Assembly: GCF_003334315.1 (NCBI RefSeq)
Contig: NZ_QOWR01000022.1
DNA from: Escherichia coli
Lineage (GTDB): Bacteria > Pseudomonadota > Gammaproteobacteria > Enterobacterales > Enterobacteriaceae
DNA length: 64,000 nt
Direction: 5' to 3' (one strand)
In this document: one piece after another, positions 1 to 59,750 of the stretch
Position numbering within the stretch: position 1 is the first letter of the stretch
How the letters are laid out: every line of letters starts with the position of its first letter
Notes under the pieces: model-generated
What the model saw: only the letters and a program-made list of their open reading frames with translations
Told to the model about the DNA's origin: nothing
Databases searched by the model: none
Translations under genes and position numbers: made by a program

Positions 1-149
1 GGTTGAGAAGCGGTGTAAGTGAACTGCAGTTGCCATGTTTTACGGCAGTGAGAGCAGAGATAGCGCTGATGTCCGGCGGTGCTTTTGCCGTTACGCACCA
101 CCCCGTCAGTAGCTGAACAGGAGGGACAGCTGATAGAAACAGAAGCCAC
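1..149 (-). CDS. insA: IS1 InsA, N-terminal fragment (GTG start at 149..147, runs off the window)
   Basis: Minus-strand translation from the GTG gives [49 protein letters not shown], matching InsA from memory. Confidence 0.7.
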
Positions 150-204
150 TGGAGCACCTCAAAAACACCATCATACACTAAATCAGTAAGTTGGCAGCAT
201 CACC
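1..204 (-). mobile_element. IS1 insertion sequence, partial (left terminal inverted repeat plus start of insA); the element continues beyond the window edge
   Basis: Reverse complement of 1..204 reads GGTGATGCTGCCAACTTACTGATTTAGTGTATGATGGTGTTTTTGAGGTGCTCCAGTGGCTTCTGTTTCTATCAGCTGTCC..., which I recognise as the IS1 left end. The psuK reading frame breaks exactly at 204/205. Confidence 0.85.
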
Positions 205-11996: not shown

Positions 11997-13553
11997 ATGT
12001 TCATACGCGCTCCCAATTTTGGACGTAAGCTCCTGCTTACCTGCATTGTTGCAGGCGTAATGATTGCGATACTGGTGAGTTGCCTTCAGTTTTTAGTGGC
12101 CTGGCATAAGCACGAAGTCAAATACGACACACTGATTACCGACGTACAAAAGTATCTCGATACCTATTTTGCCGACCTGAAATCCACTACTGACCGGCTC
12201 CAGCCGCTGACCTTAGATACCTGCCAGCAAGCTAACCCCGAACTGACCGCCCGCGCAGCGTTTAGCATGAATGTCCGAACGTTTGTGCTGGTGAAAGATA
12301 AAAAAACATTCTGTTCATCTGCGACCGGTGAGATGGACATTCCACTCAATGAATTGATTCCGGCGCTCGACATTAATAAAAACGTCGATATGGCGATCTT
12401 ACCCGGCACGCCGATGGTGCCGAACAAACCCGCAATCGTCATCTGGTATCGCAACCCTTTGCTGAAAAATAGCGGCGTCTTTGCCGCTCTGAATCTCAAC
12501 CTGACGCCTTCACTCTTTTATAGTTCACGGCAGGAAGATTACGATGGCGTCGCCCTCATTATTGGCAATACTGCGCTATCTACCTTTTCTTCACGTTTGA
12601 TGAACGTTAACGAATTAACCGACATGCCAGTCCGTGAAACTAAAATTGCGGGCATTCCTCTGACCGTTCGGCTTTATGCAGATGACTGGACATGGAACGA
12701 TGTGTGGTACGCATTTTTACTGGGCGGCATGAGTGGAACTGTCGTTGGCCTGCTCTGCTATTACCTGATGAGCGTACGTATGCGCCCCGGCAGAGAAATC
12801 ATGACCGCCATCAAGCGCGAACAATTTTACGTGGCGTATCAACCGGTGGTGGATACACAAGCTTTGCGAGTAACGGGCCTGGAAGTACTGCTACGCTGGC
12901 GGCATCCTGTCGCGGGAGAAATTCCCCCGGATGCCTTCATTAACTTTGCCGAATCGCAAAAGATGATTGTGCCGCTGACTCAGCACCTGTTTGAGTTAAT
13001 TGCCCGCGATGCCGCAGAATTAGAAAAAGTGCTGCCGGTAGGCGTCAAATTTGGTATTAACATTGCGCCGGACCATCTGCACAGCGAAAGCTTTAAAGCA
13101 GATATCCAGAAACTGCTCACTTCCCTGCCCGCACACCATTTCCAGATTGTGCTGGAAATTACCGAGCGCGATATGTTGAAAGAGCAAGAAGCCACACAAC
13201 TCTTCGCCTGGCTGCACTCGGTCGGCGTAGAAATTGCTATTGATGACTTCGGCACCGGGCACAGCGCGCTTATCTATCTTGAGCGTTTTACGCTCGATTA
13301 TCTGAAAATTGACCGTGGATTTATCAACGCCATCGGTACGGAAACGATCACTTCCCCCGTACTTGACGCGGTGCTGACGCTGGCGAAACGCCTCAATATG
13401 CTGACGGTTGCTGAAGGGGTCGAAACGCCGGAACAGGCGCGATGGCTAAGCGAACGCGGCGTTAATTTCATGCAAGGCTACTGGATTAGCCGCCCGTTAC
13501 CGCTGGACGATTTTGTTCGCTGGCTAAAGAAACCGTATACGCCGCAGTGGTAA
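11997..13553 (+). CDS. pdeN: c-di-GMP phosphodiesterase (CSS periplasmic domain + EAL domain)
   Basis: 518-aa ORF with N-terminal TM/periplasmic region and a C-terminal EAL domain (..EVLLRW.. ..DDFGTG..); formerly rtn. Confidence 0.88.
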   Translation: MFIRAPNFGRKLLLTCIVAGVMIAILVSCLQFLVAWHKHEVKYDTLITDVQKYLDTYFADLKSTTDRLQPLTLDTCQQANPELTARAAFSMNVRTFVLVKDKKTFCSSATGEMDIPLNELIPALDINKNVDMAILPGTPMVPNKPAIVIWYRNPLLKNSGVFAALNLNLTPSLFYSSRQEDYDGVALIIGNTALSTFSSRLMNVNELTDMPVRETKIAGIPLTVRLYADDWTWNDVWYAFLLGGMSGTVVGLLCYYLMSVRMRPGREIMTAIKREQFYVAYQPVVDTQALRVTGLEVLLRWRHPVAGEIPPDAFINFAESQKMIVPLTQHLFELIARDAAELEKVLPVGVKFGINIAPDHLHSESFKADIQKLLTSLPAHHFQIVLEITERDMLKEQEATQLFAWLHSVGVEIAIDDFGTGHSALIYLERFTLDYLKIDRGFINAIGTETITSPVLDAVLTLAKRLNMLTVAEGVETPEQARWLSERGVNFMQGYWISRPLPLDDFVRWLKKPYTPQW

Positions 13554-13628
13554 GGTGTGCTTACGTCCCTTATTATTCATAGTGAAAGCATGCCGGATTG
13601 CGGCTAATGATGAGTAAAAGGAAATCCG

Positions 13629-15449
13629 TTGCAGATGATTGTGCGCATACTGCTGCTGTTTATCGCTCTGTTCACCTTTGGTGTGCAGGCGCAGGCTATC
13701 AAGGAAAGCTATGCCTTTGCCGTGCTGGGCGAACCCCGGTACGCGTTTAATTTCAACCATTTTGATTATGTGAACCCCGCCGCGCCAAAAGGTGGGCAGA
13801 TAACGTTGTCAGCCCTCGGCACCTTCGATAATTTCAACCGCTATGCACTGCGCGGCAACCCGGGCGCACGCACCGAGCAGCTGTACGACACGCTATTTAC
13901 GACTTCCGATGACGAACCAGGCAGTTATTACCCGCTGATTGCTGAAAGCGCACGCTATGCTGACGATTATTCCTGGGTGGAGGTCGCTATTAATCCGCGC
14001 GCCCGTTTTCATGATGGTTCGCCCATTACTGCCCGCGATGTAGAGTTTACTTTTCAAAAATTTATGACCGAAGGCGTGCCGCAATTTCGTCTGGTCTACA
14101 AAGGCACCACCGTCAAAGCCATTGCACCGTTAACCGTGCGCATTGAGTTAGCTAAACCCGGCAAAGAAGATATGCTGAGTCTGTTTTCGCTGCCGGTATT
14201 TCCAGAAAAGTACTGGAAGGATCACAAACTTAGCGACCCGCTCGCCACGCCTCCGCTTGCCAGTGGTCCGTACCGCGTTACGTCCTGGAAAATGGGGCAA
14301 AATATTGTCTATTCCCGTGTGAAAGATTACTGGGCAGCAAACTTACCGGTAAACCGTGGACGCTGGAATTTCGACACCATTCGCTACGATTATTACCTCG
14401 ATGATAATGTCGCCTTTGAAGCGTTTAAAGCAGGTGCCTTTGATTTGCGTATGGAAAACGACGCCAAAAACTGGGCCACGCGTTATACCGGTAAAAATTT
14501 CGATAAAAAATACATCATCAAAGATGAGCAAAAGAACGAATCAGCCCAGGATACGCGTTGGCTGGCGTTTAATATCCAACGTCCGGTATTCAGCGATCGC
14601 CGGGTCCGGGAAGCTATCACTCTCGCCTTTGACTTTGAATGGATGAACAAGGCGTTGTTTTACAATGCCTGGAGTCGCACGAACAGTTATTTTCAGAATA
14701 CCGAATACGCGGCCAGAAATTACCCCGACGCCGCGGAGCTGGTGCTTCTGGCACCAATGAAAAAAGATCTACCGTCAGAAGTCTTCACACAAATCTACCA
14801 GCCGCCGGTATCCAAAGGCGATGGCTACGATCGTGACAACCTGTTAAAAGCCGACAAACTTCTCAACGAAGCGGGCTGGGTGCTGAAGGGTCAGCAACGC
14901 GTTAATGCCACAACGGGTCAGCCACTCAGCTTTGAATTATTGCTTCCCGCAAGCAGCAATAGTCAGTGGGTATTGCCGTTCCAGCACAGCCTGCAACGGC
15001 TGGGTATCAACATGGACATTCGCAAGGTGGATAACTCGCAAATCACTAACCGCATGCGCAGTCGCGACTATGACATGATGCCGCGCGTATGGCGGGCGAT
15101 GCCGTGGCCCAGTTCCGATTTACAGATTTCCTGGTCATCGGAATATATCAATTCCACTTATAATGCCCCCGGCGTGCAAAGCCCGGTTATCGACTCGCTG
15201 ATCAACCAAATTATTGCCGCGCAGGGAAATAAAGAAAAATTACTGCCGTTGGGGCGAGCACTGGATCGCGTATTAACGTGGAATTATTACATGCTGCCAA
15301 TGTGGTACATGGCGGAAGACCGTCTCGCCTGGTGGGATAAATTCTCCCAGCCGGCCGTGCGCCCCATCTATAGCCTCGGTATCGATACCTGGTGGTATGA
15401 CGTCAATAAAGCGGCCAAACTGCCGTCCGCCAGCAAACAGGGAGAGTAG
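13629..15449 (+). CDS. yejA: Periplasmic oligopeptide-binding protein of the YejABEF ABC importer
   Basis: About 604–606 aa with signal peptide; family-5 solute-binding protein. Start could be 13629 or 13635. Confidence 0.9.
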
Positions 15450-16544
15450 ATGGGCGCTTACCTGATTCGCCGTCTGTTGCTGGTGATCCCAACATTATGG
15501 GCGATTATCACCATCAACTTTTTCATCGTGCAAATTGCGCCTGGCGGTCCGGTCGACCAGGCCATCGCCGCCATTGAGTTTGGTAATGCCGGAGTATTAC
15601 CCGGCGCAGGCGGTGAAGGTGTTCGTGCCAGCCATGCGCAAACGGGTGTCGGCAATATCAGCGACAGTAATTACCGTGGCGGACGCGGATTAGATCCAGA
15701 AGTGATCGCTGAGATCACTCATCGCTACGGTTTTGATAAGCCGATCCACGAACGTTACTTCAAAATGCTCTGGGACTACATCCGCTTTGATTTTGGCGAT
15801 AGCCTGTTTCGCAGCGCCTCGGTGCTGACGCTGATTAAAGACAGTCTGCCGGTTTCCATCACCCTCGGATTGTGGAGCACGCTGATTATCTATCTGGTGT
15901 CGATTCCGTTAGGCATTCGCAAAGCTGTTTATAATGGGAGCCGCTTTGACGTCTGGAGTAGCGCATTTATCATCATCGGCTACGCCATTCCGGCCTTTTT
16001 GTTTGCCATCCTGCTGATTGTCTTCTTCGCGGGCGGCAGCTATTTCGACCTGTTCCCTCTACGCGGCCTGGTTTCCGCTAACTTTGATTCGCTGCCGTGG
16101 TATCAGAAAATCACCGATTATCTGTGGCATATCACGCTGCCGGTGCTGGCGACAGTGATTGGTGGCTTTGCGGCGCTGACCATGCTGACAAAAAACTCAT
16201 TCCTTGATGAAGTGCGCAAGCAATACGTGGTGACCGCGCGTGCGAAAGGGGTAAGTGAAAAAAATATTCTCTGGAAACATGTGTTCCGCAACGCCATGCT
16301 GCTGGTGATTGCCGGTTTTCCGGCGACGTTTATCAGCATGTTTTTTACCGGCTCGCTGCTGATTGAGGTGATGTTTTCACTCAATGGTCTGGGCTTACTG
16401 GGCTACGAAGCGACCGTCTCGCGCGATTATCCTGTAATGTTTGGTACCTTGTATATTTTCACCCTGATTGGCCTGCTGCTGAATATTGTCAGTGATATCA
16501 GCTATACGCTGGTTGATCCGCGTATTGATTTTGAGGGACGTTAA
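15450..16544 (+). CDS. yejB: ABC transporter permease YejB
   Basis: 364-aa membrane ORF immediately following yejA. Confidence 0.9.
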
Positions 16545-17569
16545 TGTCGCGACTCAGCCCCGTCAATCAGGCCCGTTGGGCGCGTTTTCGTCATAACCGT
16601 CGCGGCTACTGGTCGTTATGGATTTTCCTCGTCTTGTTTGGTTTGAGTTTGTGTTCTGAACTTATCGCCAACGATAAACCGTTGCTGGTGCGTTATGACG
16701 GCAGTTGGTATTTCCCGTTATTGAAAAACTACAGCGAAAGCGATTTTGGCGGCCCGCTGGCAAGTCAGGCTGATTATCAGGACCCGTGGCTGAAACAACG
16801 GCTGGAAAATAACGGCTGGGTACTGTGGGCACCGATTCGCTTTGGTGCTACCAGTATCAACTTTGCTACCGATAAGCCCTTCCCTTCTCCACCCTCCCGG
16901 CAAAACTGGCTGGGAACGGATGCCAACGGCGGCGATGTGCTGGCACGCATTCTCTATGGCACGCGGATCTCGGTTCTGTTTGGCCTGATGCTGACTCTCT
17001 GTTCCAGCGTGATGGGCGTGCTGGCGGGGGCGCTACAAGGCTATTACGGCGGTAAAGTCGATCTCTGGGGACAACGCTTTATTGAAGTATGGTCGGGGAT
17101 GCCGACGCTGTTTTTGATTATTTTACTTTCCAGCGTCGTACAGCCTAACTTCTGGTGGCTGCTGGCAATTACTGTCTTGTTTGGCTGGATGAGTCTGGTC
17201 GGCGTGGTGCGGGCGGAGTTTTTACGTACTCGTAATTTCGACTACATTCGTGCGGCACAGGCGCTTGGCGTCAGCGATCGCAGTATCATCCTGCGTCATA
17301 TGTTGCCTAATGCCATGGTCGCGACCCTCACCTTTTTACCGTTTATTTTATGTAGTTCGATAACCACCCTGACCTCGCTCGATTTCCTCGGCTTCGGTCT
17401 ACCGCTCGGTTCACCGTCACTCGGTGAACTGCTGTTACAAGGGAAAAATAACCTTCAGGCCCCGTGGCTTGGGATCACCGCCTTCTTGTCGGTGGCGATA
17501 TTATTGTCTTTGCTGATCTTTATTGGTGAAGCCGTCCGCGACGCATTTGATCCTAATAAGGCGGTGTAG
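16544..17569 (+). CDS. yejE: ABC transporter permease YejE
   Basis: 341-aa membrane ORF; start overlaps the yejB stop (ATGA-type coupling). Confidence 0.9.
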   Translation: MSRLSPVNQARWARFRHNRRGYWSLWIFLVLFGLSLCSELIANDKPLLVRYDGSWYFPLLKNYSESDFGGPLASQADYQDPWLKQRLENNGWVLWAPIRFGATSINFATDKPFPSPPSRQNWLGTDANGGDVLARILYGTRISVLFGLMLTLCSSVMGVLAGALQGYYGGKVDLWGQRFIEVWSGMPTLFLIILLSSVVQPNFWWLLAITVLFGWMSLVGVVRAEFLRTRNFDYIRAAQALGVSDRSIILRHMLPNAMVATLTFLPFILCSSITTLTSLDFLGFGLPLGSPSLGELLLQGKNNLQAPWLGITAFLSVAILLSLLIFIGEAVRDAFDPNKAV

Positions 17570-17570
17570 C

Positions 17571-19160
17571 ATGACGCAAACTCTGTTAGCGATTGAAAAT
17601 TTGTCGGTGGGTTTTCGCCATCAGCAAACCGTACGTACAGTAGTCAATGATGTTTCACTACAGATTGAGGCTGGCGAAACGCTGGCGCTGGTGGGTGAGT
17701 CAGGTTCAGGCAAAAGCGTTACCGCGCTGTCAATTTTACGCCTGCTCCCTTCCCCGCCGGTTGAATATCTCTCCGGCGATATTCGTTTTCATGGCGAATC
17801 GCTGCTTCACGCCAGCGATCAAACGTTGCGCGGTGTACGCGGTAATAAGATCGCCATGATTTTTCAGGAACCGATGGTGTCGTTAAATCCATTGCATACC
17901 CTGGAAAAACAGCTTTATGAAGTGCTTTCACTCCACCGCGGGATGCGTCGGGAAGCGGCTCGTGGCGAAATTCTTAACTGCCTTGATCGCGTTGGTATCC
18001 GCCAGGCGGCAAAACGGCTGACAGATTATCCGCATCAGCTCTCCGGCGGCGAACGGCAGCGGGTGATGATTGCGATGGCGCTGTTAACGCGACCGGAATT
18101 ATTAATTGCCGATGAACCGACCACCGCACTGGACGTCTCTGTCCAGGCGCAGATTTTACAGCTGTTGCGCGAACTGCAAGGCGAGCTGAATATGGGCATG
18201 CTGTTTATTACTCATAACCTCAGCATTGTCAGAAAACTGGCCCACCGCGTGGCGGTAATGCAAAACGGTCGCTGTGTCGAGCAAAATTACGCCGCTACGC
18301 TATTTGCATCACCCACTCATCCTTACACACAAAAGCTACTCAACAGTGAACCGTCAGGCGATCCAGTGCCGTTGCCAGAACCTGCCTCAACGTTGCTGGA
18401 TGTTGAACAGCTTCAGGTTGCCTTCCCCATTCGCAAAGGGATTTTGAAGCGCATTGTGGATCATAATGTGGTGGTGAAAAACATCAGTTTTACGCTACGA
18501 GCGGGTGAAACACTGGGTTTAGTGGGCGAGTCCGGTTCCGGGAAAAGTACGACGGGACTGGCGCTGCTGCGACTGATTAATTCTCAGGGCAGCATCATCT
18601 TTGACGGTCAGCCACTGCAAAATTTAAATCGCCGCCAGCTGTTACCTATTCGTCATCGCATTCAGGTGGTATTTCAGGATCCAAACTCCTCGCTCAACCC
18701 ACGACTCAACGTTTTGCAGATTATTGAGGAAGGCTTACGGGTTCACCAGCCGACGCTTTCTGCCGCACAACGCGAACAACAAGTGATAGCCGTGATGCAT
18801 GAAGTGGGATTAGATCCTGAAACACGCCACCGTTATCCGGCGGAGTTCTCTGGTGGTCAGCGACAACGTATTGCGATTGCCAGGGCATTAATTCTTAAGC
18901 CCTCGCTGATCATACTTGATGAACCGACATCATCACTCGACAAAACGGTACAGGCGCAAATATTGACGCTATTGAAATCATTGCAACAAAAGCATCAACT
19001 GGCCTATTTGTTTATCAGCCACGATTTGCACGTTGTCCGCGCGTTATGTCATCAGGTTATCATACTGCGACAAGGGGAAGTAGTGGAACAAGGACCGTGC
19101 GCGCGCGTGTTTGCCACACCGCAGCAGGAGTATACGCGTCAGCTACTGGCGTTGAGCTGA
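17571..19160 (+). CDS. yejF: ABC transporter ATP-binding protein YejF (two fused ATPase domains)
   Basis: Two Walker A motifs (GESGSGKS twice) and two LSGG signature motifs; start set at MTQTLLAIENL (529 aa) rather than the upstream ATG of the track ORF. Confidence 0.9.
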   Translation: MTQTLLAIENLSVGFRHQQTVRTVVNDVSLQIEAGETLALVGESGSGKSVTALSILRLLPSPPVEYLSGDIRFHGESLLHASDQTLRGVRGNKIAMIFQEPMVSLNPLHTLEKQLYEVLSLHRGMRREAARGEILNCLDRVGIRQAAKRLTDYPHQLSGGERQRVMIAMALLTRPELLIADEPTTALDVSVQAQILQLLRELQGELNMGMLFITHNLSIVRKLAHRVAVMQNGRCVEQNYAATLFASPTHPYTQKLLNSEPSGDPVPLPEPASTLLDVEQLQVAFPIRKGILKRIVDHNVVVKNISFTLRAGETLGLVGESGSGKSTTGLALLRLINSQGSIIFDGQPLQNLNRRQLLPIRHRIQVVFQDPNSSLNPRLNVLQIIEEGLRVHQPTLSAAQREQQVIAVMHEVGLDPETRHRYPAEFSGGQRQRIAIARALILKPSLIILDEPTSSLDKTVQAQILTLLKSLQQKHQLAYLFISHDLHVVRALCHQVIILRQGEVVEQGPCARVFATPQQEYTRQLLALS

Positions 19161-19163
19161 CGC

Positions 19164-19508
19164 TTAAAAAGGATTGTAGTTTGAAAAGGGTTCGGCAATT
19201 GCCACACCAAAATTTTTCAATCGGCATGTTGCAGCAAACTCGTCCTGGCGATTTACAAACAGGCACGGCTCACCTTCACACTCCAGCACCGAACATGGAA
19301 CTTCGATGTCGCTTAACGCCTGGCTTAGTTTATACATCACCGACCATGCATTATCACCATCCGGGCTAAGCAATTTAAGCGCCACCAGGCTGTTGTCACC
19401 GCACGGTCCATTTTGCGGAATCGGTTCAACCTTCGAACCTGCGAAACCAGCAGACCAGCGATAGTTCTGCGGCAGTCGATGGACGATTGAGAGTTGTAAT
19501 GAAGTCAC
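19164..19508 (-). CDS. yejG: Uncharacterized protein YejG
   Basis: 114-aa ORF in the conserved position convergent with yejF. Confidence 0.8.
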
Positions 19509-19840
19509 TTATTTTCCCCGGAAGCACATTCACTTCACAATTTGTTTACATCAATTTTAACACATCATCAACAATCCGTCTTTATACAGATCGTAAAGAT
19601 TGATGCCTCGCCTGCGTGGCCTCTATGGCTCTGATTTAAGTAATATCTGCGGGCGTGGTCACGTTTGCGGGGCTATATGTACCCGTTTCTGCGATCTAAC
19701 TCAACCTTTTTAACTACAATGATGTGACTTTTTACATAAATTGATTTTACATAAAATAAACATATATCGGGGGAATGATAGATTTGTGGTTGACATGCAT
19801 CAACAAAGGAAGCCTTTTAGCTTCCTCGTTGTGCAATAGA

Positions 19841-21031
19841 TCACCGTTTTTTCGGCCGACTGGCGTACAGACAGAAGAGAATGGAGCTGGTTGCGCAGAA
19901 TGCAATTGACCAAATCATCGGCCATGCAGAGTTAAAGGTCGCAAGAGAAAGCAATGCGCCAACAATTGCCCCTATGCCAAAACGGAAGGTTCCTGCCAGC
20001 GAAGATGCCGTTCCCGCCATATGGGGAAACTCATCAAGAATGACCGCCATCGCATTGGATGACACCATCGACACGCAGCCCACAAACGCCGCAACGCCAA
20101 CCACCAGCGACCAAAATCCCAGCCCCAGCAGCGCACTGATGACCATCCACGCTGCCATAATAAATTGTATCCACAACCCCGAGCGGAACATATTTAACGC
20201 GCCAATGCGGCGGACGAAGCGGCTGTTAAAGATGGTCATCACGAACAGAAAAACAATGTTTAGCGCAAAGTAATAACCAAAGTTTTCCGGCGCGACGTGG
20301 TTAATTTCAATATAAACAAACGGTCCGGCGCTTAAGAATGAGAACATCCCGGCAAAGCTGAAACCACTGGCAAGCATGTAGCTCAGGACACGTTTATGGC
20401 GGAACAGCGCCGCAAAGTTACCAATAGTGGTACGAATGTGAAATGGCTGACGACGCTCCGGTGGTAAGGTTTCTTTAATCAGGAAGAAAATCATTGCCGA
20501 AGCCAGAATCGCCGCTAATGCCAGGATCCAGAAGATGTAATGCCAGCTCAGCCACACCAGCACCCAGCCGCCAACTATCGGTGCCATCAGCGGTGCAATG
20601 GTTGTCACCAGCATGACAAACGACATCATCCGCGAGAACTCTTCTTTCGGGTAAATATCGCGCATCAGGGCGTTAATGACCACGCTGGCCGCAGCCGCAG
20701 CCAGCCCGTGGAAGAAACGCATCACAATCAGCTGATCGATGGTGTTTGCCAACGCACACGCCACCGCGGCGGCGGCAAACACCAGCGTACCGCCGAGCAC
20801 CACCGGCTTACGCCCGAAGCTGTCTGCCATCGGCCCGTAGATTAACTGCCCCAACGCAAAGCCCAGAATATAAGTACTGAGGGTCATCTGCGTACTGCCC
20901 GCCGGTACGCCAAACTGCGCTGAAATTACCGGTAGCGCGGGCAGATACATATCAATCGACAGCGGCATCAACATGGCCAGCAGGCCAAGGATAAAAACAA
21001 TAGCAAACGACGAATGCTGTCGGGTGGTCAC
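19841..21031 (-). CDS. bcr: MFS multidrug efflux transporter Bcr (bicyclomycin/sulfonamide resistance)
   Basis: 396-aa 12-TM MFS ORF. Confidence 0.9.
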
Positions 21032-43975: not shown

Positions 43976-44464
43976 ATGAAGACCATTCTACCTGCAGTAT
44001 TGTTTGCCGCTTTCGCTACCACTTCCGCCTGGGCGGCAGAAAGCGTCCAGCCACTGGAAAAAATCGCGCCTTATCCACAAGCTGAAAAAGGGATGAAGCG
44101 TCAGGTGATTCAGTTAACCCCGCAAGAAGATGAATCTACCCTGAAAGTAGAACTGTTAATCGGTCAGACGCTGGAAGTCGATTGCAATTTGCATCGTCTC
44201 GGCGGGAAGCTGGAAAACAAAACGCTGGAAGGCTGGGGCTATGATTATTATGTCTTTGATAAAGTCAGTTCCCCGGTTTCAACGATGATGGCCTGCCCGG
44301 ATGGCAAGAAAGAGAAGAAATTTGTCACCGCGTATCTGGGCGATGCTGGAATGCTGCGTTACAACAGCAAGCTGCCGATCGTGGTGTATACGCCAGACAA
44401 TGTAGATGTGAAGTACCGCGTCTGGAAGGCGGAAGAGAAAATTGACAACGCGGTAGTTCGCTAA
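43976..44464 (+). CDS. eco: Ecotin (periplasmic serine protease inhibitor)
   Basis: 162-aa product starting [23 protein letters not shown]... Confidence 0.93.
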
Positions 44465-44470
44465 ACTGCC

Positions 44471-44948
44471 GTGAAGTGCGGCACCCCGTAGGTCAGACAA
44501 GGCGGTCACGCCGCATCCGACATCCAACGCCCGAGTCGGTTGCCTGATGCGACGCTGGCGCGTCTTATCAGGCCTACACCGCTGTGAAGTGCTCCACCCC
44601 GTAGGTCGGATAAGGCGGTTACGCCGCATCCGACATCTAACGCCCAAGCCGGTTGCCTGATGCGACGCTGGCGCGTCTTATCAGGCCTACACCGCTGTGA
44701 AGTGCTCCACCCCGTAGGTCGGATAAGGCGGTTACGCCGCATCCGACATCTAACGCCCAAGCCGGTTGCCTGATGCGACGCTGGCGCGTCTTATCAGGCC
44801 TACACCGCTGTGAAGTGCTCCACCCCGTAGATTGGATAAGGCGGTTACGCCGCATCCGACATCTAACGCCCGAGCCGGTTGCCTGATAAGACGCTGGCGC
44901 GTCTTATCAGCATACGCCACATCCCCGGCATACCATGCCGGATGTGGC
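44471..44948. repeat. Tandem BIME/REP array: about 4 copies of a 113-bp unit, each carrying REP palindromes
   Basis: Units begin at about 44471, 44584, 44697 and 44810; each contains ccgcatccgacatc and gcctgatgcgacgctggcgcgtcttatcaggcctacaccgct. Confidence 0.85.
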
Positions 44949-46818: not shown

Positions 46819-48462
46819 TTATGCCGTCCGGGCAACGGCATCACGCGAAGCGGCATCGCGCTCTTCGCCCGTCAGCTCGCTAAGCTGCCCATTGCGCATT
46901 TCCAGCAGGCGGTCGGCGTGGATAAAGTAATGATCATCATGACTGATGGCGAAAATAGTTTTACCCATCTCCTGCATCAGCGGCAGCAACACCTGATAAA
47001 ACTCACGACGGAAGTGTGGATCCTGATCCGCCGCCCATTCATCCAGCAGGATAATATCGCGTTCTTCTGCCAGCGCCAGCAACAGCGCCACGCGTTTTTT
47101 CTGCCCTTTTGATAACTTCAGGTTAACAATACGCCCGTTGCTTAACTCAAGCTTATGAGCCATTTTCAGCTGCGCCAGCCACTTCTCAACCAGTTGCGGG
47201 TTAGCGGGTTTACCCTCCGGCCCCAGCAGTTGATCAAACAGCCAGACATCGGTAAACACTGCCGAAAACAGTTTGCGATAATCTTCCGGTTGTTCGCCGC
47301 TGACAGGTTTGCCATCCAGCAAGATTTCGCCGCTTTGTGGCTGATACAAGCCCGTCAACAACATCGCCAGCGTCGATTTTCCGCTACCGTTGCCGCCAAT
47401 CAGAAACAGCAGCTCGCCACGTTTGATAGTGAGATTAATCGGACCAACGGAAAACGCGTTATCCTGATAAGCAAACGTCACGTTACGCAGCTCCAGCGTT
47501 TGCCAGTTGGGAAACGCCTGCGGGCGCGGAAACTCTGCTTTGAAAGGCGCGAGCGCGAATTTGTTCAGCTTGTTAAACGCCACCTGCGCCGTCAGCAGCG
47601 TCGGCAATGCGCCAACCGCCGAAAGCAGCGGCGTACGCAGGAATAAAAGCGTCAACGAATAGGTCGCGGCAACGTTGGTATCAGCCCAACCGAGGCTGTT
47701 CGCCATCCAGAACACCAGGCCGATTGCGCCCAGCATCATGATGTTTGACCAGTTCACGGCACTAAGATGGAAGGTGTCTGCGCGAATAATATGGTGGCGA
47801 TACTCTTGCGCATCAGGAATGTAGAGGTTGTTAAACACATACTCGGCGCGTTCCCGGTTCAGAGTCAGCTCTTTGCGCCCTTCAAGTACAGTTTGAAAAT
47901 CCGTGTACAGCTTGTCTTCGGTTTCACGCAGGGTCGCCATATGTTTGTACACCCGCGCCACCAGCACAAAACCGCCCCAGATGGTGATCGCCATCCAGAT
48001 AGCCGTTACCAGCAACATTTTGCCCGACAGCATCCACAGATACGCCGCTGAACCGATAGTGAGAATGATCCCCTGCACCAGTTCCGGCAGACGCACAAAA
48101 GCAATGGTGATATTGCGCACATCGCTGGTTAACCCCGCCAGCAACGAGGCGCTACCGAGTTGTTCAATGCGCTCGACGTGAGTATCCAGAATCCGCTTGA
48201 TAAATTCACTACGCAGTCGGTAAACGAAGTGATGCCCCAAAGTGGTGAGCGCCAGTTGCGATCCGAGAGTGACTGCCATCAACAGCAGCAATAATCCCAG
48301 AAACTCCGGCAACACCAGCAGACTGGTATCCGCCGTTTCGATAAGGCGCTGATTGATAAAAGCAATTAAGCCAATGCCTAATGCCGCACTGGCGAGGCTT
48401 AGCGCCATCACACTGATAAATGGCCAGCGATACTGCCGCCAGACAAGTACAAGAAGTTCCAT
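46819..48462 (-). CDS. yojI: ABC exporter YojI (permease–ATPase fusion; microcin J25 efflux)
   Basis: 547-aa ORF with N-terminal TM domain and C-terminal Walker [10 protein letters not shown]. Confidence 0.9.
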
Positions 48463-50325: not shown

Positions 50326-51381
50326 TTAATTTTTTTCGCTGACAAGGAAGCTTTTAAACTGTGGTGACATCCAGGTTTTAAAGCTATCGCCTTCTTTGGT
50401 GATCATATAAACCGCCAGCCCTTCCCGGCGAACAACCTCTTTAGCTTTCTCCGGCCCGAGTACCATCAAGCCAGTATCCCAGGCATCGGCTTCCAGCGCC
50501 GTCGGAGCAATCACCGTCACGGATACCAGATTGTGTTCGATGGGACGCCCGGTTTGCGGATCGATAACATGGGAAAGACGTTTGCCGTCCAGTTCGTAAT
50601 AGTTACGGTAGCTGCCAGAGGTGCTAATCCCATGACCGTTGATATCCACCACAGCCTGAACCGCGTTTTCTTTATCGGTTGGTTTTTGAATCGCTACCCG
50701 CCACGGCAGGCCTTCACCGTTCATACCACGGCTGTTCAGCGCGCCGCCCACCGACACCAGATAGCGGGAAATCCCTTCCTGCTCCATCAAGCGTGCCAAA
50801 TGATCGGCCGCATAGCCTTCGCCGACGGTGGAGAGATCGACATATAAATCCGGCAGGTCTTTTTGCAGATATTGCTGATGCGACTGATTGATGACCGTCA
50901 GGTGCTGTAAGCCGGTTTTGGCTTTCATCGCATCGATCTGTTCCTGGCTCGGAATTTGAACCGGCTGTTGTTCCGGGCCAAAGCCCCACAGATTCACCAG
51001 CGGCCCGACGGTTATATCCATCGCGCCATCGGTCTTCGCGCCAATGCGCAGCGAGGTGGTGACGATATCGGCCATCGCTTCACTTACCGGCCACGGCGAT
51101 AAACTTTGCGAGTCGTTAAAGCGCATCAGCGCGGAATCTTTTTTATAGGTCGAAAGCAGCTGATCGTCGGCGTCCAGTTGGGTCTGAATCTTTTCTTTAA
51201 GTTCGGCGCTGCGTTTGGCGTCAATGCCCGGGATGCTGGCACGCCAGAAGGTACCCATAGTTTTGCCTTCAAGAACGGTAACTTCAGTAGCGTGGGTTTT
51301 GGCGGGTTGTGGTTTTTGATCGCAACCAACAAAGAAGAGCGCGGCAGCCAGCAGTGCCACGCGGGTAAAGCTTATTTCCAT
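50326..51381 (-). CDS. apbE: FAD:protein FMN transferase ApbE (lipoprotein)
   Basis: 351-aa ORF with lipoprotein signal (FFVGC). Confidence 0.92.
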   Translation of the reverse strand: MEISFTRVALLAAALFFVGCDQKPQPAKTHATEVTVLEGKTMGTFWRASIPGIDAKRSAELKEKIQTQLDADDQLLSTYKKDSALMRFNDSQSLSPWPVSEAMADIVTTSLRIGAKTDGAMDITVGPLVNLWGFGPEQQPVQIPSQEQIDAMKAKTGLQHLTVINQSHQQYLQKDLPDLYVDLSTVGEGYAADHLARLMEQEGISRYLVSVGGALNSRGMNGEGLPWRVAIQKPTDKENAVQAVVDINGHGISTSGSYRNYYELDGKRLSHVIDPQTGRPIEHNLVSVTVIAPTALEADAWDTGLMVLGPEKAKEVVRREGLAVYMITKEGDSFKTWMSPQFKSFLVSEKN

Positions 51382-51451
51382 ACGTGATTATCCTCATGCG
51401 AACGGTCGCAAGAGTACACCAAAAAACTGAGTTTGTACGCTGAAAACAATG

Positions 51452-51478
51452 AAAAAAGGGCCCGCAGGCCCTTTGTTC
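51452..51478 (-). terminator. Rho-independent terminator downstream of ompC
   Basis: Hairpin agggcc-tgc-gggccct followed by TTTTTT on the minus strand. Confidence 0.75.
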
Positions 51479-51492
51479 GATATCAATCGAGA

Positions 51493-52638
<1,146 letters not shown>

Positions 52639-52754
52639 TTATATGCCTTTATTTGCTTTTTTATGCCACTGCATACTGATTAACCCTCATTAATCAGTCG
52701 GCAAGTCCATTCTCCCCAAAAATGCAGAATAATCCAACACGAATATGATACTAA

Positions 52755-52810
52755 AACTTTTAAGATGTTTCATTTATCGCTATAGATGTTTCAAAATGTA
52801 AATGCAAGGG
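52755..52810. promoter_or_regulatory. OmpR-binding boxes in the ompC/micF divergent control region
   Basis: Reverse complement of 52782..52804 is GCATTTACATTTTGAAACATCTA (OmpR C-box-like); a second similar box lies at 52761..52780. Confidence 0.65.
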
Positions 52811-52957
52811 AACTTTTTAAGATTATTGCGGAATGGCGAAATAAGCACCTAACATCAAGCAATAATAATTCAAGGTTAAAATCAATAACTTATTCTTAAG
52901 TATTTGACAGCACTGAATGTCAAAACAAAACCTTCACTCGCAACTAGAATAACTCCC

Positions 52958-53050
52958 GCTATCATCATTAACTTTATTTATTACCGTCATTCATTTCTGA
53001 ATGTCTGTTTACCCCTATTTCAACCGGATGCCTCGCATTCGGTTTTTTTT
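52958..53050 (+). ncRNA. micF: MicF small antisense RNA (regulator of ompF mRNA)
   Basis: GCTATCATCATTAACTTTATTTATTACCGTCATTCATTTCTGAATGTCTGTTTACCCCTATTTCAACCGGATGCCTCGCATTCGGTTTTTTTT matches micF as recalled; it ends in its own intrinsic terminator and lies divergent from ompC. Confidence 0.9.
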
Positions 53051-56704: not shown

Positions 56705-56900
<196 letters not shown>

Positions 56901-59750
56901 CTACGAATCCCGCGATTTCCTGACCCTCTCGGCATATAACGTCAGCGTCTGTTTTATCACATCCAGCATTACCGGCTTCGACAGGCAGCTGTCCATACCG
57001 GACTCCAGACACCGCTGCTTCTCTTCAGCCAACGCATTAGCAGTTACTCCGATTACCGGCAACGTCAGTCCCAACTGACGAATGCGTTGCGTCAAGCGGT
57101 AACCATCCATATTTGGCATGTTGACGTCGCTAAGCACGATATCAATATGATTCTTGCTAAGTACATTAAGCGCATCGACGCCATCATTCGCGGTTTTACA
57201 TTGATAGCCCAACGATCCCAACTGATCTGCCAGCAAACGCCGGTTAATCGGATGATCATCCACGACAAGAATCATCATATCGTCATTATCGCTGACCGCT
57301 TTGTCCGTTGACGGCAGAGCGTTAGCAGGATCGTCGCTCTCCATCTCGATCAAATAAATACGCGCCAACAATGCCGGTAGCTCATGCGGAGCAGCCACAC
57401 TGTGTACCCACTCCCCTGGCGCTTTCTCCAGCGGAATACCAATATGGCGACGACAGAAGGTCACTACCGCTCTGCCCTGCCATTTTTTACTCACTACCTC
57501 GTCAGTGATCAACACATCTTCGGGAGTCGGTTCCTGCCCTTCGTATGTTGTAACGACGATGCCGCTGCGCTGCAAACTGGTTTCCAGGAACTGACAGAGC
57601 GACGCATTGCGGACCGCCAGCCAGCAGCGTTTACCACTCAACCCTTCCACGCCTTTTTTCTGCGGGTACTGAGCGCCGTACAACGGAATACGCACGGTAA
57701 ACTGGCTGCCCATTCCCGGTTCTGAATCTACCGAGATATCGCCGTCCATCATGCTGATCAGTTTTTCACAAATCGCCAGACCCAGACCGGTCCCCTGGAA
57801 ATTACGCTGTACGCCCGTTCCGACCTGGAAGAAGGGATCAAACAAGCGCACCACTTCTTTCGCCGGTATCCCCACGCCGGTATCGCGAACACGGATAGAG
57901 AGATAATCGCCATCCGCGCGAACATGCAAAACTATACAGCCGGTATCGGTGAATTTTATGGCGTTACTCAACAGGTTGGAGATGACCTGCTGTAAACGCA
58001 TCGGGTCGCCATTTAAGGCCACTGGCACATCCGGTTCAATAAAGCAGTACAAGCCTAACTGCTTGCGTACCACCAGCGGTAAATAGTTGGCGGTGATGTG
58101 GTTCATCACTTCACGCGGTGAAAACTCACGCGGTTCGATCTTCAACTGTTCCGATTCAATCTTCGAGAAATCGAGAATATCGCTGATAATTTTCAACAAC
58201 AGGCTGGAAGAGTTGTTCATTGCCGTCACCAGCCGATCGACGCCTTTCGGTAACTCTTTGGTTTGCAACAGATCCAGGTTACCGATAATGCCATACAGCG
58301 GCGTTCGCAGCTCATGACTGACGGTGGCAAGGAACATCGATTTTGACTGGCTCGCCTGTTCCGCTGCTTGTGCCATCTCCTGCAACGACTCTTCCATCTT
58401 CACGCGCGAAGAAACATCCACCAGCACACAAATGGCCACGTTTTCATTACGATAGCGCGAATGGACGAAGCTGATTTGCAGATTGGTATTGTTGCTGGTC
58501 AGGACATCAACAAAATTGACCTGCTGCCCACAGATAATTTGCGTCAGTCGTTGGCGGTCCTCATGCGTAAGCATATTGAGATAGGTATGCGCCAGTTCGT
58601 TACTTAAAATATTGACGCCATCAGCGGTACGCAAAATGCAGATACCCACTGGCGCGGAGGCGACAATCTTGCGATTGAACTGCTCATGTTCTTCCAGTCG
58701 CAGGGCGTCGCTTTCCGCCGGAATGAAAATACGTCGCTCGTACATCCGTGCGAGAGTAAACAATGCAGCTCCGGCAAGCACATTCAGCAAAATTGCGTTA
58801 AGGATCAACATGCGAATGCGTTCCAGCACCTTATCAACCGGCACCGAATACACGATGCTTAGCGATGAGGGTGGCAGATTTTTCTTCAGCACCAGCTCCC
58901 GGAACCCTTCCGTATAGCCAAACCAGGAGCGTTCCTGCATCCAGCGAGGATCGCCCTTAATTTTACTTTCTGGTCCGGTAAGCGAAATCAGGGTATGACC
59001 ATTTTCATCAAGAATGGTAACCCCCATCGGCAACGTACCCGGTAAGAAAAAGTTTTCCATCCGGATGGTCTGCTCGACACCCAAAAGCGCCTGCAACCGG
59101 TTCGCCAGATAAACTGGCGTCAACGCGTAAAAATACCCGACGCCAGGGCGCGGACCTTCGCTGATCCAGTAGAGGTTACTGCCGCTATCATCTTGTGGTG
59201 CATTTCGATATTTATTGATGCGTTCATGCAAAGCTTTCAACGCGGTATCGCGTTCCACTGGCATATCACGCAGACCGAAATTGGCCATGCAGAGGTTATC
59301 ACTGCCGATTAAAAATACCCGGTTGAGATCGTAAGCCGCAGAAAAATTATCGCGCCAGTAGCGCATAAACCACGCCAATGACTCCAGAGAACCTCGCCAG
59401 GTGTTACTCATCGCGGAACAATCGGAGTCGGCAAACAGCGGTTCAAACGCAGGCACATCCGCCTGCGTTTCTCGTCCACGCGGGGAAAGCACACCGTTCT
59501 CTGCCGATAAGCGATTTTCGGCGATGTACTTCAGCTCTTTCATCACATCAGAGGTGCGTTGAATAAAGCGCTGAGCCTGATCGGAACTCAGATTAAATTC
59601 CTGACGAATTTCCGATTCTCGCTGATGTAACGCATTAACGATGTAAAAAACGGATGAAAAAGCAATCAACAGCCAGAGCACTAACGCCAATGCTCTGAAC
59701 ATGTAGCGCGAGGCTTTCAGGGTTGTACGAAAAGAAGCAAGGTATTTCAA
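56901..59750 (-). CDS. rcsC: Rcs hybrid sensor histidine kinase RcsC
   Basis: 949-aa ORF with TM/periplasmic domain, HisKA (H-box SHELRTP), HATPase and C-terminal receiver domain. Confidence 0.95.
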   Translation of the reverse strand: MKYLASFRTTLKASRYMFRALALVLWLLIAFSSVFYIVNALHQRESEIRQEFNLSSDQAQRFIQRTSDVMKELKYIAENRLSAENGVLSPRGRETQADVPAFEPLFADSDCSAMSNTWRGSLESLAWFMRYWRDNFSAAYDLNRVFLIGSDNLCMANFGLRDMPVERDTALKALHERINKYRNAPQDDSGSNLYWISEGPRPGVGYFYALTPVYLANRLQALLGVEQTIRMENFFLPGTLPMGVTILDENGHTLISLTGPESKIKGDPRWMQERSWFGYTEGFRELVLKKNLPPSSLSIVYSVPVDKVLERIRMLILNAILLNVLAGAALFTLARMYERRIFIPAESDALRLEEHEQFNRKIVASAPVGICILRTADGVNILSNELAHTYLNMLTHEDRQRLTQIICGQQVNFVDVLTSNNTNLQISFVHSRYRNENVAICVLVDVSSRVKMEESLQEMAQAAEQASQSKSMFLATVSHELRTPLYGIIGNLDLLQTKELPKGVDRLVTAMNNSSSLLLKIISDILDFSKIESEQLKIEPREFSPREVMNHITANYLPLVVRKQLGLYCFIEPDVPVALNGDPMRLQQVISNLLSNAIKFTDTGCIVLHVRADGDYLSIRVRDTGVGIPAKEVVRLFDPFFQVGTGVQRNFQGTGLGLAICEKLISMMDGDISVDSEPGMGSQFTVRIPLYGAQYPQKKGVEGLSGKRCWLAVRNASLCQFLETSLQRSGIVVTTYEGQEPTPEDVLITDEVVSKKWQGRAVVTFCRRHIGIPLEKAPGEWVHSVAAPHELPALLARIYLIEMESDDPANALPSTDKAVSDNDDMMILVVDDHPINRRLLADQLGSLGYQCKTANDGVDALNVLSKNHIDIVLSDVNMPNMDGYRLTQRIRQLGLTLPVIGVTANALAEEKQRCLESGMDSCLSKPVMLDVIKQTLTLYAERVRKSRDS

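Follow-up and report, generated by a model that had tools for sequence, protein, structure and literature searches.

The yejABEF peptide importer operon and the convergent gene yejG in an Escherichia coli chromosomal contig

The stretch described here was identified, with near certainty, as the chromosomal E. coli operon yejABEF, with yejG lying convergently behind it as an independent gene. Identity, intactness, domains and motifs, operon architecture and species-wide conservation were all observed at the locus, and the sequence offers nothing against the yejABEF assignment. The four genes were placed in series at 13635–19160 (+ strand) of the window (the whole 64,000-nt stretch of DNA that was analysed) by the open reading frame (ORF) list and the RefSeq annotation. 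Names for yejA, yejB, yejE, yejF and yejG were taken from RefSeq, as annotated in a strain with 100% identity and in K-12 MG1655, and pdeN and bcr were annotated by RefSeq as the flanking genes (Table 1). The yejABEF operon with yejG is an already well described, ordinary E. coli locus; an earlier note on this DNA had likewise called it not novel.

Table 1. Features of the yejABEF-yejG locus in window coordinates
Feature	Coordinates	Strand	Remarks
pdeN-yejA spacer, 81 nt	13554..13634	+	holds the yejA ribosome-binding site AAGGA; identical to K-12
yejA, 604 aa, periplasmic family-5 (cluster C) peptide-binding protein	13635..15449	+	DNA identical to K-12 b2177
yejB, permease subunit, 364 aa	15450..16544	+	DNA identical to K-12; NF011712
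yejE, second permease subunit, 341 aa	16544..17569	+	NF011596; one base different from K-12
yejF, two nucleotide-binding domains in one polypeptide, 529 aa	17571..19160	+	identical to K-12; NF011713
inverted repeat over the yejF and yejG stops	19133..19166		12-nt arms, 10-nt loop
yejG, 114 aa, YejG family PF13989	19164..19508	-	identical to K-12 b2181; NF008811
yejG sigma-70 promoter, TTGATG-17-TATCAT	19775..19803	-	consensus scan and genomic SELEX list (PMC3946193)

All five frames (yejA, yejB, yejE, yejF and yejG) were open, without an internal stop, and equal in length to those of K-12. Disrupting mutations in yejA/B/E/F, on which the earlier note had let its reading stand or fall, were sought and none was found. 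The yejA/yejB junction had a 0-nt gap, with the yejB ATG directly abutting the yejA stop (TAGATG); yejB and yejE overlapped by 1 nt, start upon stop (TAATG), and yejE and yejF were 1 nt apart. The operon was predicted from this arrangement, with the A-B-E-F order on one strand and the frames open. Chance was ruled out as the source of the ORFs by four long, translationally coupled frames scoring 781–1100 bits against curated family models. The convergent orientation of yejG, which the note had described, was seen in the ORFs and in the RefSeq annotation, and 3 nt separated the stop codons of yejF and yejG. ORF positions given in the note held except at the yejA start, where ATG 13635 is accepted in place of TTG 13629, in frame and two codons upstream. 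Mature YejA is unaffected by the choice because both starts lie within the cleaved signal peptide. The mechanically called yejF ORF begins at TTG 17523, upstream of the accepted start at 17571. The yejABEF locus was found in every complete E. coli genome searched (5426/5426), and the order pdeN-yejABEF-yejG-bcr was also found in Salmonella, Kosakonia and Mangrovibacter, with yejA-yejG-bcr on another, shorter contig.

YejA was assigned to Pfam SBP_bac_5 (E 5.5e-65), and its residues 20–604 matched the solved E. coli YejA chains 7z6f, 8fsr and 7atr at ~1360 bits; no NCBIfam model reached its cut-off with YejA in the NCBIfam search. Ala19 is the last residue of the cleaved signal peptide (VQA/QAIKE), and the N-terminal extension contains the 11-residue self-binding segment defined in PMC10924461. 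The remaining proteins were matched over their full length by NF011712 ('microcin C ABC transporter permease YejB'; 793 bits, cut-off 445), NF011596 (YejE; 781 bits, cut-off 439), NF011713 (YejF; 1100 bits, cut-off 834) and NF008811 (YejG; 205 bits, cut-off 119). The locus thus holds the complete four-gene oligopeptide-type ABC importer that the earlier note had recognized, with an SBP_bac_5 YejA and with YejB, YejE and YejF above model cut-offs. The parts of an Opp/Dpp-type importer, namely a family-5 binding protein, a pair of BPD_transp_1 permeases and Opp-type ATPase domains, were found partly through the precomputed Pfam assignments of YejABEF orthologues, in which BPD_transp_1 and ABC_tran each occur twice and oligo_HPY gives a faint match. 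YejF carried two each of the Walker A (residues 42 and 319), signature (LSGGE 157 and FSGGQ 426), Walker B (177 and 446) and H-loop (215 and 484) motifs; with both motif sets complete it is a fused double ATPase, as had been proposed. Its nearest solved relatives were Rv1281c and DppD, the fused ATPases of the mycobacterial Opp/Dpp importers, and no PDB chain identical to YejB, YejE or YejF was found. The architecture of YejABEF is shared by E. coli OppBCDF and DppBCDF and by M. tuberculosis OppABCD (Rv1281c) and DppABCD, the mycobacterial systems also having both ATPase domains fused in one chain, as in YejF. The Opp, Dpp, Nik and Gsi NCBIfam models showed similarity to the locus proteins but all fell below cut-off, and these are separate families. 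An N-terminal extension of 35 residues, unique to YejA, and a larger cavity set it apart from the Opp/Dpp binding proteins (PMC10924461).

Sequence comparison to K-12 yejABEF, proposed earlier as a check, was run against K-12 MG1655 yejABEF-yejG (b2177–b2181). The two loci agreed in gene order, in the strand and length of each gene, in start and stop codons and in both spacers examined. Over all five genes together with these two flanking spacers, a single base differed: codon 110 of yejE (16871–16873) was GAT (Asp) here and AAT (Asn) in K-12. The DNA of yejA, yejB, yejF, yejG, pdeN and bcr was identical to K-12. Elsewhere in the window there were differences from K-12, with an IS1 in psuK, a yejO without IS5 and a divergent ompC in the window strain. 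The genetics of microcin C uptake were done in K-12 (YejE Asn110), and the window strain has Asp110; we know of no specific test of the Asp110 allele.

YejABEF is an ABC importer of the peptide/opine/nickel family. YejA, secreted via the Sec pathway, would bind periplasmic peptides and dock on the heterodimeric YejB-YejE permease, and YejF, with both ATP-binding domains in one chain, would power inward translocation through ATP hydrolysis. The peptide range given for YejA in the literature is ~7–13 residues and takes in the formylated heptapeptide that serves as the microcin C carrier. Because this carrier would be accepted, a cell with an intact operon would be permeable to microcin C, a Trojan-horse inhibitor of aspartyl-tRNA synthetase that would enter by this route, and loss of any of the four yej genes would confer resistance. 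That this is a known microcin C uptake route, as had been stated, is established by the requirement for YejABEF in K-12 (Novikova et al. 2007, as cited in PMC10924461 and PMC3985669); insertions in yejABEF were recovered in a microcin C screen (PMC10924461). The operon of this strain is expected, from its sequence, to work like that of K-12. Given normal outer-membrane entry and intracellular processing, intact yejABEF predicts uptake of microcin C-type peptide–nucleotide antibiotics and of synthetic Trojan-horse peptide conjugates; here its importance is little beyond bookkeeping. The intact yojI reported elsewhere in the window was located at 46822–48462 (- strand) by tblastn, with 547/547 residues identical to K-12 YojI, a microcin J25 efflux ABC transporter. 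The proposal that these genes set the microcin susceptibility profile of the strain stands as to the intactness of yejABEF and yojI, but they define that profile only in part. Besides these genes, OmpF and peptidases A/B/N are needed for microcin C, and FhuA, TonB and SbmA for microcin J25; presumably none of the corresponding genes lies inside the stretch.

An operon that looks intact might nevertheless be functionally altered through the YejE Asn110Asp difference, the sole coding difference from K-12, at a residue of the N-terminal region, shortly ahead of the conserved part of YejE that can be aligned with OppC and DppC. This is scarcely credible, for Asp110 is the majority allele: its 63-mer was found exactly in 3958 of 4884 matching genomes and the Asn110 63-mer in 355, the Asn110 carriers among the matches listed being mostly K-12 laboratory strains. 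Asp110 is the common, species-typical E. coli allele, and Asn110 appears to occur mainly in K-12 laboratory strains; with Asp110 in the majority, if one YejE allele is odd it is that of K-12. For users of K-12 as a reference the point is a modest one, that Asn110 in K-12 YejE is lineage-specific and that most E. coli, the window strain among them, have Asp110. The main job of the system could be something other than nutrient peptide uptake, either defence against host cationic antimicrobial peptides, imported for breakdown in the cytoplasm, or the sensing of envelope stress, and microcin C entry would then be a side effect. Such a role, which leaves the molecular identity unaffected and is compatible with the main explanation, is considered rather unlikely. 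Cells rely on the orthologous transporters (YejABEF of Salmonella, Brucella and Sinorhizobium, YejBEF-YepA of Agrobacterium) for uptake of the peptide antibiotic phazolicin, and their sensitivity or resistance to host peptides hinges on these systems. In Brucella, which has YejA1/A2 as additional or alternative binding proteins (PMC10924461), polymyxin B sensitivity rose when yejE, or the entire operon, was deleted (PMC10924461 and PMC4994006), but the remaining single-gene deletions are given as without effect (PMC10924461). Purified E. coli YejA bound only peptides from its own N-terminal extension, a self-peptide binding that the authors of the structure suggested may serve periplasmic or membrane stress sensing; the antimicrobial peptides tested were not bound, and thermal-shift assays gave no sign of such binding (PMC10924461). 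The window itself holds nothing that bears on role. Recycling of cell-wall muropeptides, by analogy with YejBEF of Agrobacterium tumefaciens, which imports them, is a highly improbable function here. Import there is tied to another binding protein, YepA, exclusive to Alphaproteobacteria; this function occurs in lineages mostly without AmpG, and yejA deletion gave no such phenotype (PMC9790009). E. coli has AmpG, and its ampG was used for complementation in the same study (PMC9790009); in the present locus YejA itself fills that place, by its match to solved E. coli YejA.

YejG might belong to the Yej system as a functional fifth part or as its regulator, acting for instance in the cytoplasm on imported peptides or translation inhibitors, although we regard this as very unlikely. 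The 3 nt between yejG and yejF, the convergent arrangement kept in Salmonella, Kosakonia, Mangrovibacter and one further relative, the 12-nt overlap of the yejF and yejG 3' ends in Mangrovibacter and the inverted repeat covering both stop codons would all fit such a link. The neighbouring gene order, however, was also conserved, from mepS to lapC in three long contigs, so the adjacency weighs little, and synteny was set aside as uninformative on this question. Against a link stand also the position of yejG on the other strand with its own promoter and a family of only 282 clusters, all homologues carrying PF13989; the named YejG clusters were all from Enterobacteriaceae except one labelled Vagococcus, so that almost no named homologues lie outside that family. 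The microcin C screen gave insertions in yejABEF, and yejG goes unmentioned in PMC10924461. The function of YejG was given as unknown in 2024 (PMC10942610), and its PDB match, 6bi6, is titled 'Uncharacterized protein YejG'. Beyond adjacency, nothing here connects YejG with the transporter, and functional coupling to the importer that it faces across the 3-nt gap is a slimmer chance still. We take the solved YejG structure to resemble domain III of elongation factor G. If coupled, YejG could modulate or protect translation when Yej imports peptide-linked translation inhibitors, and the stop-spanning inverted repeat could join the 3' ends of both convergent transcripts.

YejG is best treated as an independent gene, and its flanks and those of the operon were scanned for regulatory elements. 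RydC, a trans-encoded sRNA, is reported to target the yejABEF mRNA (PMC3985669). Rfam at gathering thresholds gave no match in the locus when the whole window was scanned, and at E<=1 over 13400–19900 no RNA element was found, the sole match, to a human lncRNA model, being rated as chance (21.7 bits, gathering score 80). The yejG leader (~260 nt) was not more stably folded than its shuffled versions (z -0.51) and had no Rfam match, and small ORFs in the yejG-bcr spacer showed nothing notable. Overall counts from the promoter and terminator scans were not above shuffle expectation, so these scans are of little weight. No terminator was found on either strand from 17855 to 20000, and no sigma-70-like site was found by consensus scan in the pdeN-yejA spacer. 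The inverted repeat, with 11 of 12 arm positions complementary, is not a canonical intrinsic terminator because it is without a T-run; as a putative element it could fold into a hairpin at the 3' end of each of the convergent transcripts. The consensus scan placed the yejG promoter ~260 nt ahead of the start of the gene, and genomic SELEX lists the same hexamer pair, in the yejG-bcr spacer, among constitutive RpoD promoters and assigns it to yejG (PMC3946193).

Open reading frames (ORFs) across the yej locus were listed mechanically, and gene coordinates were taken from the RefSeq annotations of K-12 MG1655 and of a strain with 100% identity and converted to window positions (table below). The list held four successive long ORFs on the + strand and a single ORF on the - strand, in agreement with an earlier note that had placed the four-gene peptide ABC importer yejABEF and the convergent gene yejG here from sequence alone. 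The position of the locus stood, and the start assigned to yejA was corrected: the accepted ATG lies at 13635, and 13629 is a TTG in the same frame, two codons before it, a shift without consequence because the affected codons fall in the cleaved signal peptide. The locus is the already-described E. coli yejABEF-yejG, and nothing unusual was found in its coding sequences, spacers or RNA scans. When window 13000-20500 was compared by megablast with every complete E. coli genome, the stretch was present in 5426 of 5426, chromosomal every time, with at least 80% of the query covered in 5423.

Coordinates of features at the yej locus and elsewhere in the window (residue numbers for YejF motifs)
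Feature	Position	Strand	Mechanical ORF	Source
IS1 element (part)	1-204			
pdeN	11997-13553	+		RefSeq annotation
yejA	13635-15449	+	13629-15449	RefSeq annotation
yejB	15450-16544	+	15450-16544	RefSeq annotation
yejE	16544-17569	+	16544-17569	RefSeq annotation
yejE codon 110	16871-16873	+		comparison with MG1655
yejF	17571-19160	+	17523-19160	RefSeq annotation
YejF Walker A (GESGSGKS)	residues 42, 319			
YejF signatures	LSGGE 157, FSGGQ 426			
YejF Walker B	residues 177, 446			
YejF H-loops	residues 215, 484			
Inverted repeat, 12 nt	19133-19144/19155-19166			
yejG	19164-19508	-	19164-19508	RefSeq annotation
yejG leader with promoter	19509-19803	-		
Promoter-like site	19803..19775	-		scan
Hairpin	~19807-19826	-		by eye
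bcr	19841-21031	-		RefSeq annotation
L25 ribosomal-protein leader	23741-23766	+		Rfam
tRNA	27482-27555	+		Rfam
yejO	27660-30251	-		
IS5K insertion point of K-12 yejO	~30185-30188			
Register-shifted matches	44461-44910			blast vs K-12
naRNA4, three copies	44491-44800	+		
yojI	46822-48462	-		
ompC region	~51000-53000			
micF	52957-53050			
naRNA4, two copies	56711-56901	-		

Base-by-base comparison found pdeN, yejA, yejB, yejF, yejG, bcr and two spacers identical to MG1655, with no internal stops or length changes in pdeN, yejABEF, yejG or bcr. The sole change in the operon was one base in yejE, where codon 110 is GAT (Asp) in the window and AAT (Asn) in K-12; the operon, which the earlier note had proposed to check against K-12, thus carries no disrupting mutation. 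Alleles were surveyed by counting exact matches to an Asp and an Asn version of a 63-nt probe with this codon at its centre. Exact matches to the Asp110 probe came from 3958 genomes out of 4884 that matched, and those to the Asn110 probe from 355; therefore Asp110 is the species-typical YejE allele and Asn110 of K-12 the unusual, minority one for this subunit of the microcin C transporter. Among the matches listed, Asn110 carriers were mostly K-12 derivatives (e.g., MG1655, C600, J53, ER1709).

The genes meet at TAGATG (yejA/yejB), an overlapping TAATG (yejB/yejE) and TAGCATG (yejE/yejF), junctions typical of a translationally coupled operon. NCBIfam models were applied with curated cut-offs and matched YejB (793 bits, cut-off 445), YejE (781, cut-off 439) and YejF (1100, cut-off 834) at full length; no NCBIfam model reached its cut-off for YejA. 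YejA carries the Pfam SBP_bac_5 domain, and its residues 20-604 align to solved E. coli YejA chains (7z6f, 8fsr, 7atr) at ~1360 bits. The match starts at residue 20, in agreement with signal-peptide cleavage after VQA; mature YejA starts at Gln in the structural paper (PMC10924461). YejF has a complete ATPase motif set in each half. In the PDB copy searched, neither YejE nor YejF had an identical chain; their nearest solved relatives were subunits of mycobacterial and E. coli Opp/Dpp importers. All testable membership features were present, and yejABEF encodes an ABC importer of the peptide/opine/nickel family that depends on a binding protein.

Given the near-identity, the transporter of the window's strain would be expected to behave as in K-12. 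Competition assays (Novikova 2007 and Vondenhoff et al., relayed in PMC10924461) suggest that YejABEF accepts peptides of ~7-13 residues, and yejABEF mRNA is under control of the sRNA RydC (PMC3985669). Peptides co-purifying with purified YejA derive from its own N-terminal extension (core LGEPRYAFN), and no binding of the purified protein to the tested antimicrobial peptides was seen (PMC10924461). The self-peptide segment with this core is found in the window's YejA.

The presence of an intact yojI was confirmed: its protein is 100% identical to K-12 YojI, annotated there as microcin J25 efflux protein. That the yej and yojI genes define part of the strain's microcin susceptibility profile is fair, but for a part only, because outer-membrane uptake and intracellular processing of microcins need genes outside this stretch.

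YejG (205 bits, cut-off 119, full-length NCBIfam match) corresponds to PDB 6bi6, 'Uncharacterized protein YejG', and its function was unknown as of 2024 (PMC10942610). Upstream of yejG, a scan found the promoter-like site TTGATG-17-TATCAT, the same hexamer pair as in the constitutive RpoD promoter assigned to yejG by genomic SELEX (PMC3946193). This position gives a yejG leader of ~260 nt, in which no significant structure was predicted (z -0.51) and no Rfam match was found. Just upstream, after the bcr stop, a hairpin AGGAAGC-loop-GCTTCCT was seen by eye; the scan did not report it. The convergent yejF and yejG have stop codons 3 nt apart, straddled by the inverted repeat (11/12 complementary, loop 10 nt). 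It has no T-run on either strand, and the scan found no canonical terminator between or within the two gene ends.

The YejG family is small (282 clusters), the named ones all from Enterobacteriaceae but one. The yejF/yejG arrangement is retained in Salmonella, Kosakonia, Mangrovibacter and a fourth contig, and the neighbouring gene order from mepS to lapC is also retained in the three long contigs among these. Since the neighbours are conserved too, synteny is no argument for a functional link; YejG could conceivably be functionally coupled to the Yej system, adjacency being the sole evidence found.

Elsewhere, the first 204 nt of the window lie inside an IS1 element and match IS1A/IS1B copies with 100% identity; the median number of places with such copies in an E. 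coli genome is 10. As collinearity with K-12 begins at base 205, within psuK, this gene appears to be interrupted by IS1 at junction 204/205. The adhesin-like autotransporter gene yejO is an unbroken 863-aa ORF here and a pseudogene split by IS5K in K-12. At the first cluster of naRNA4 (REP/BIME-type) repeats, the register-shifted matches indicate a differing repeat copy number. The ompC region, which includes micF, has about 100 K-12 differences within 2 kb versus a single one in the yej region; judged by these differences, ompC is a divergent allele inside an otherwise K-12-like segment. The L25 leader upstream of rplY and the tRNA at the position of K-12 proL (tRNA-Pro) are unremarkable and located as expected.
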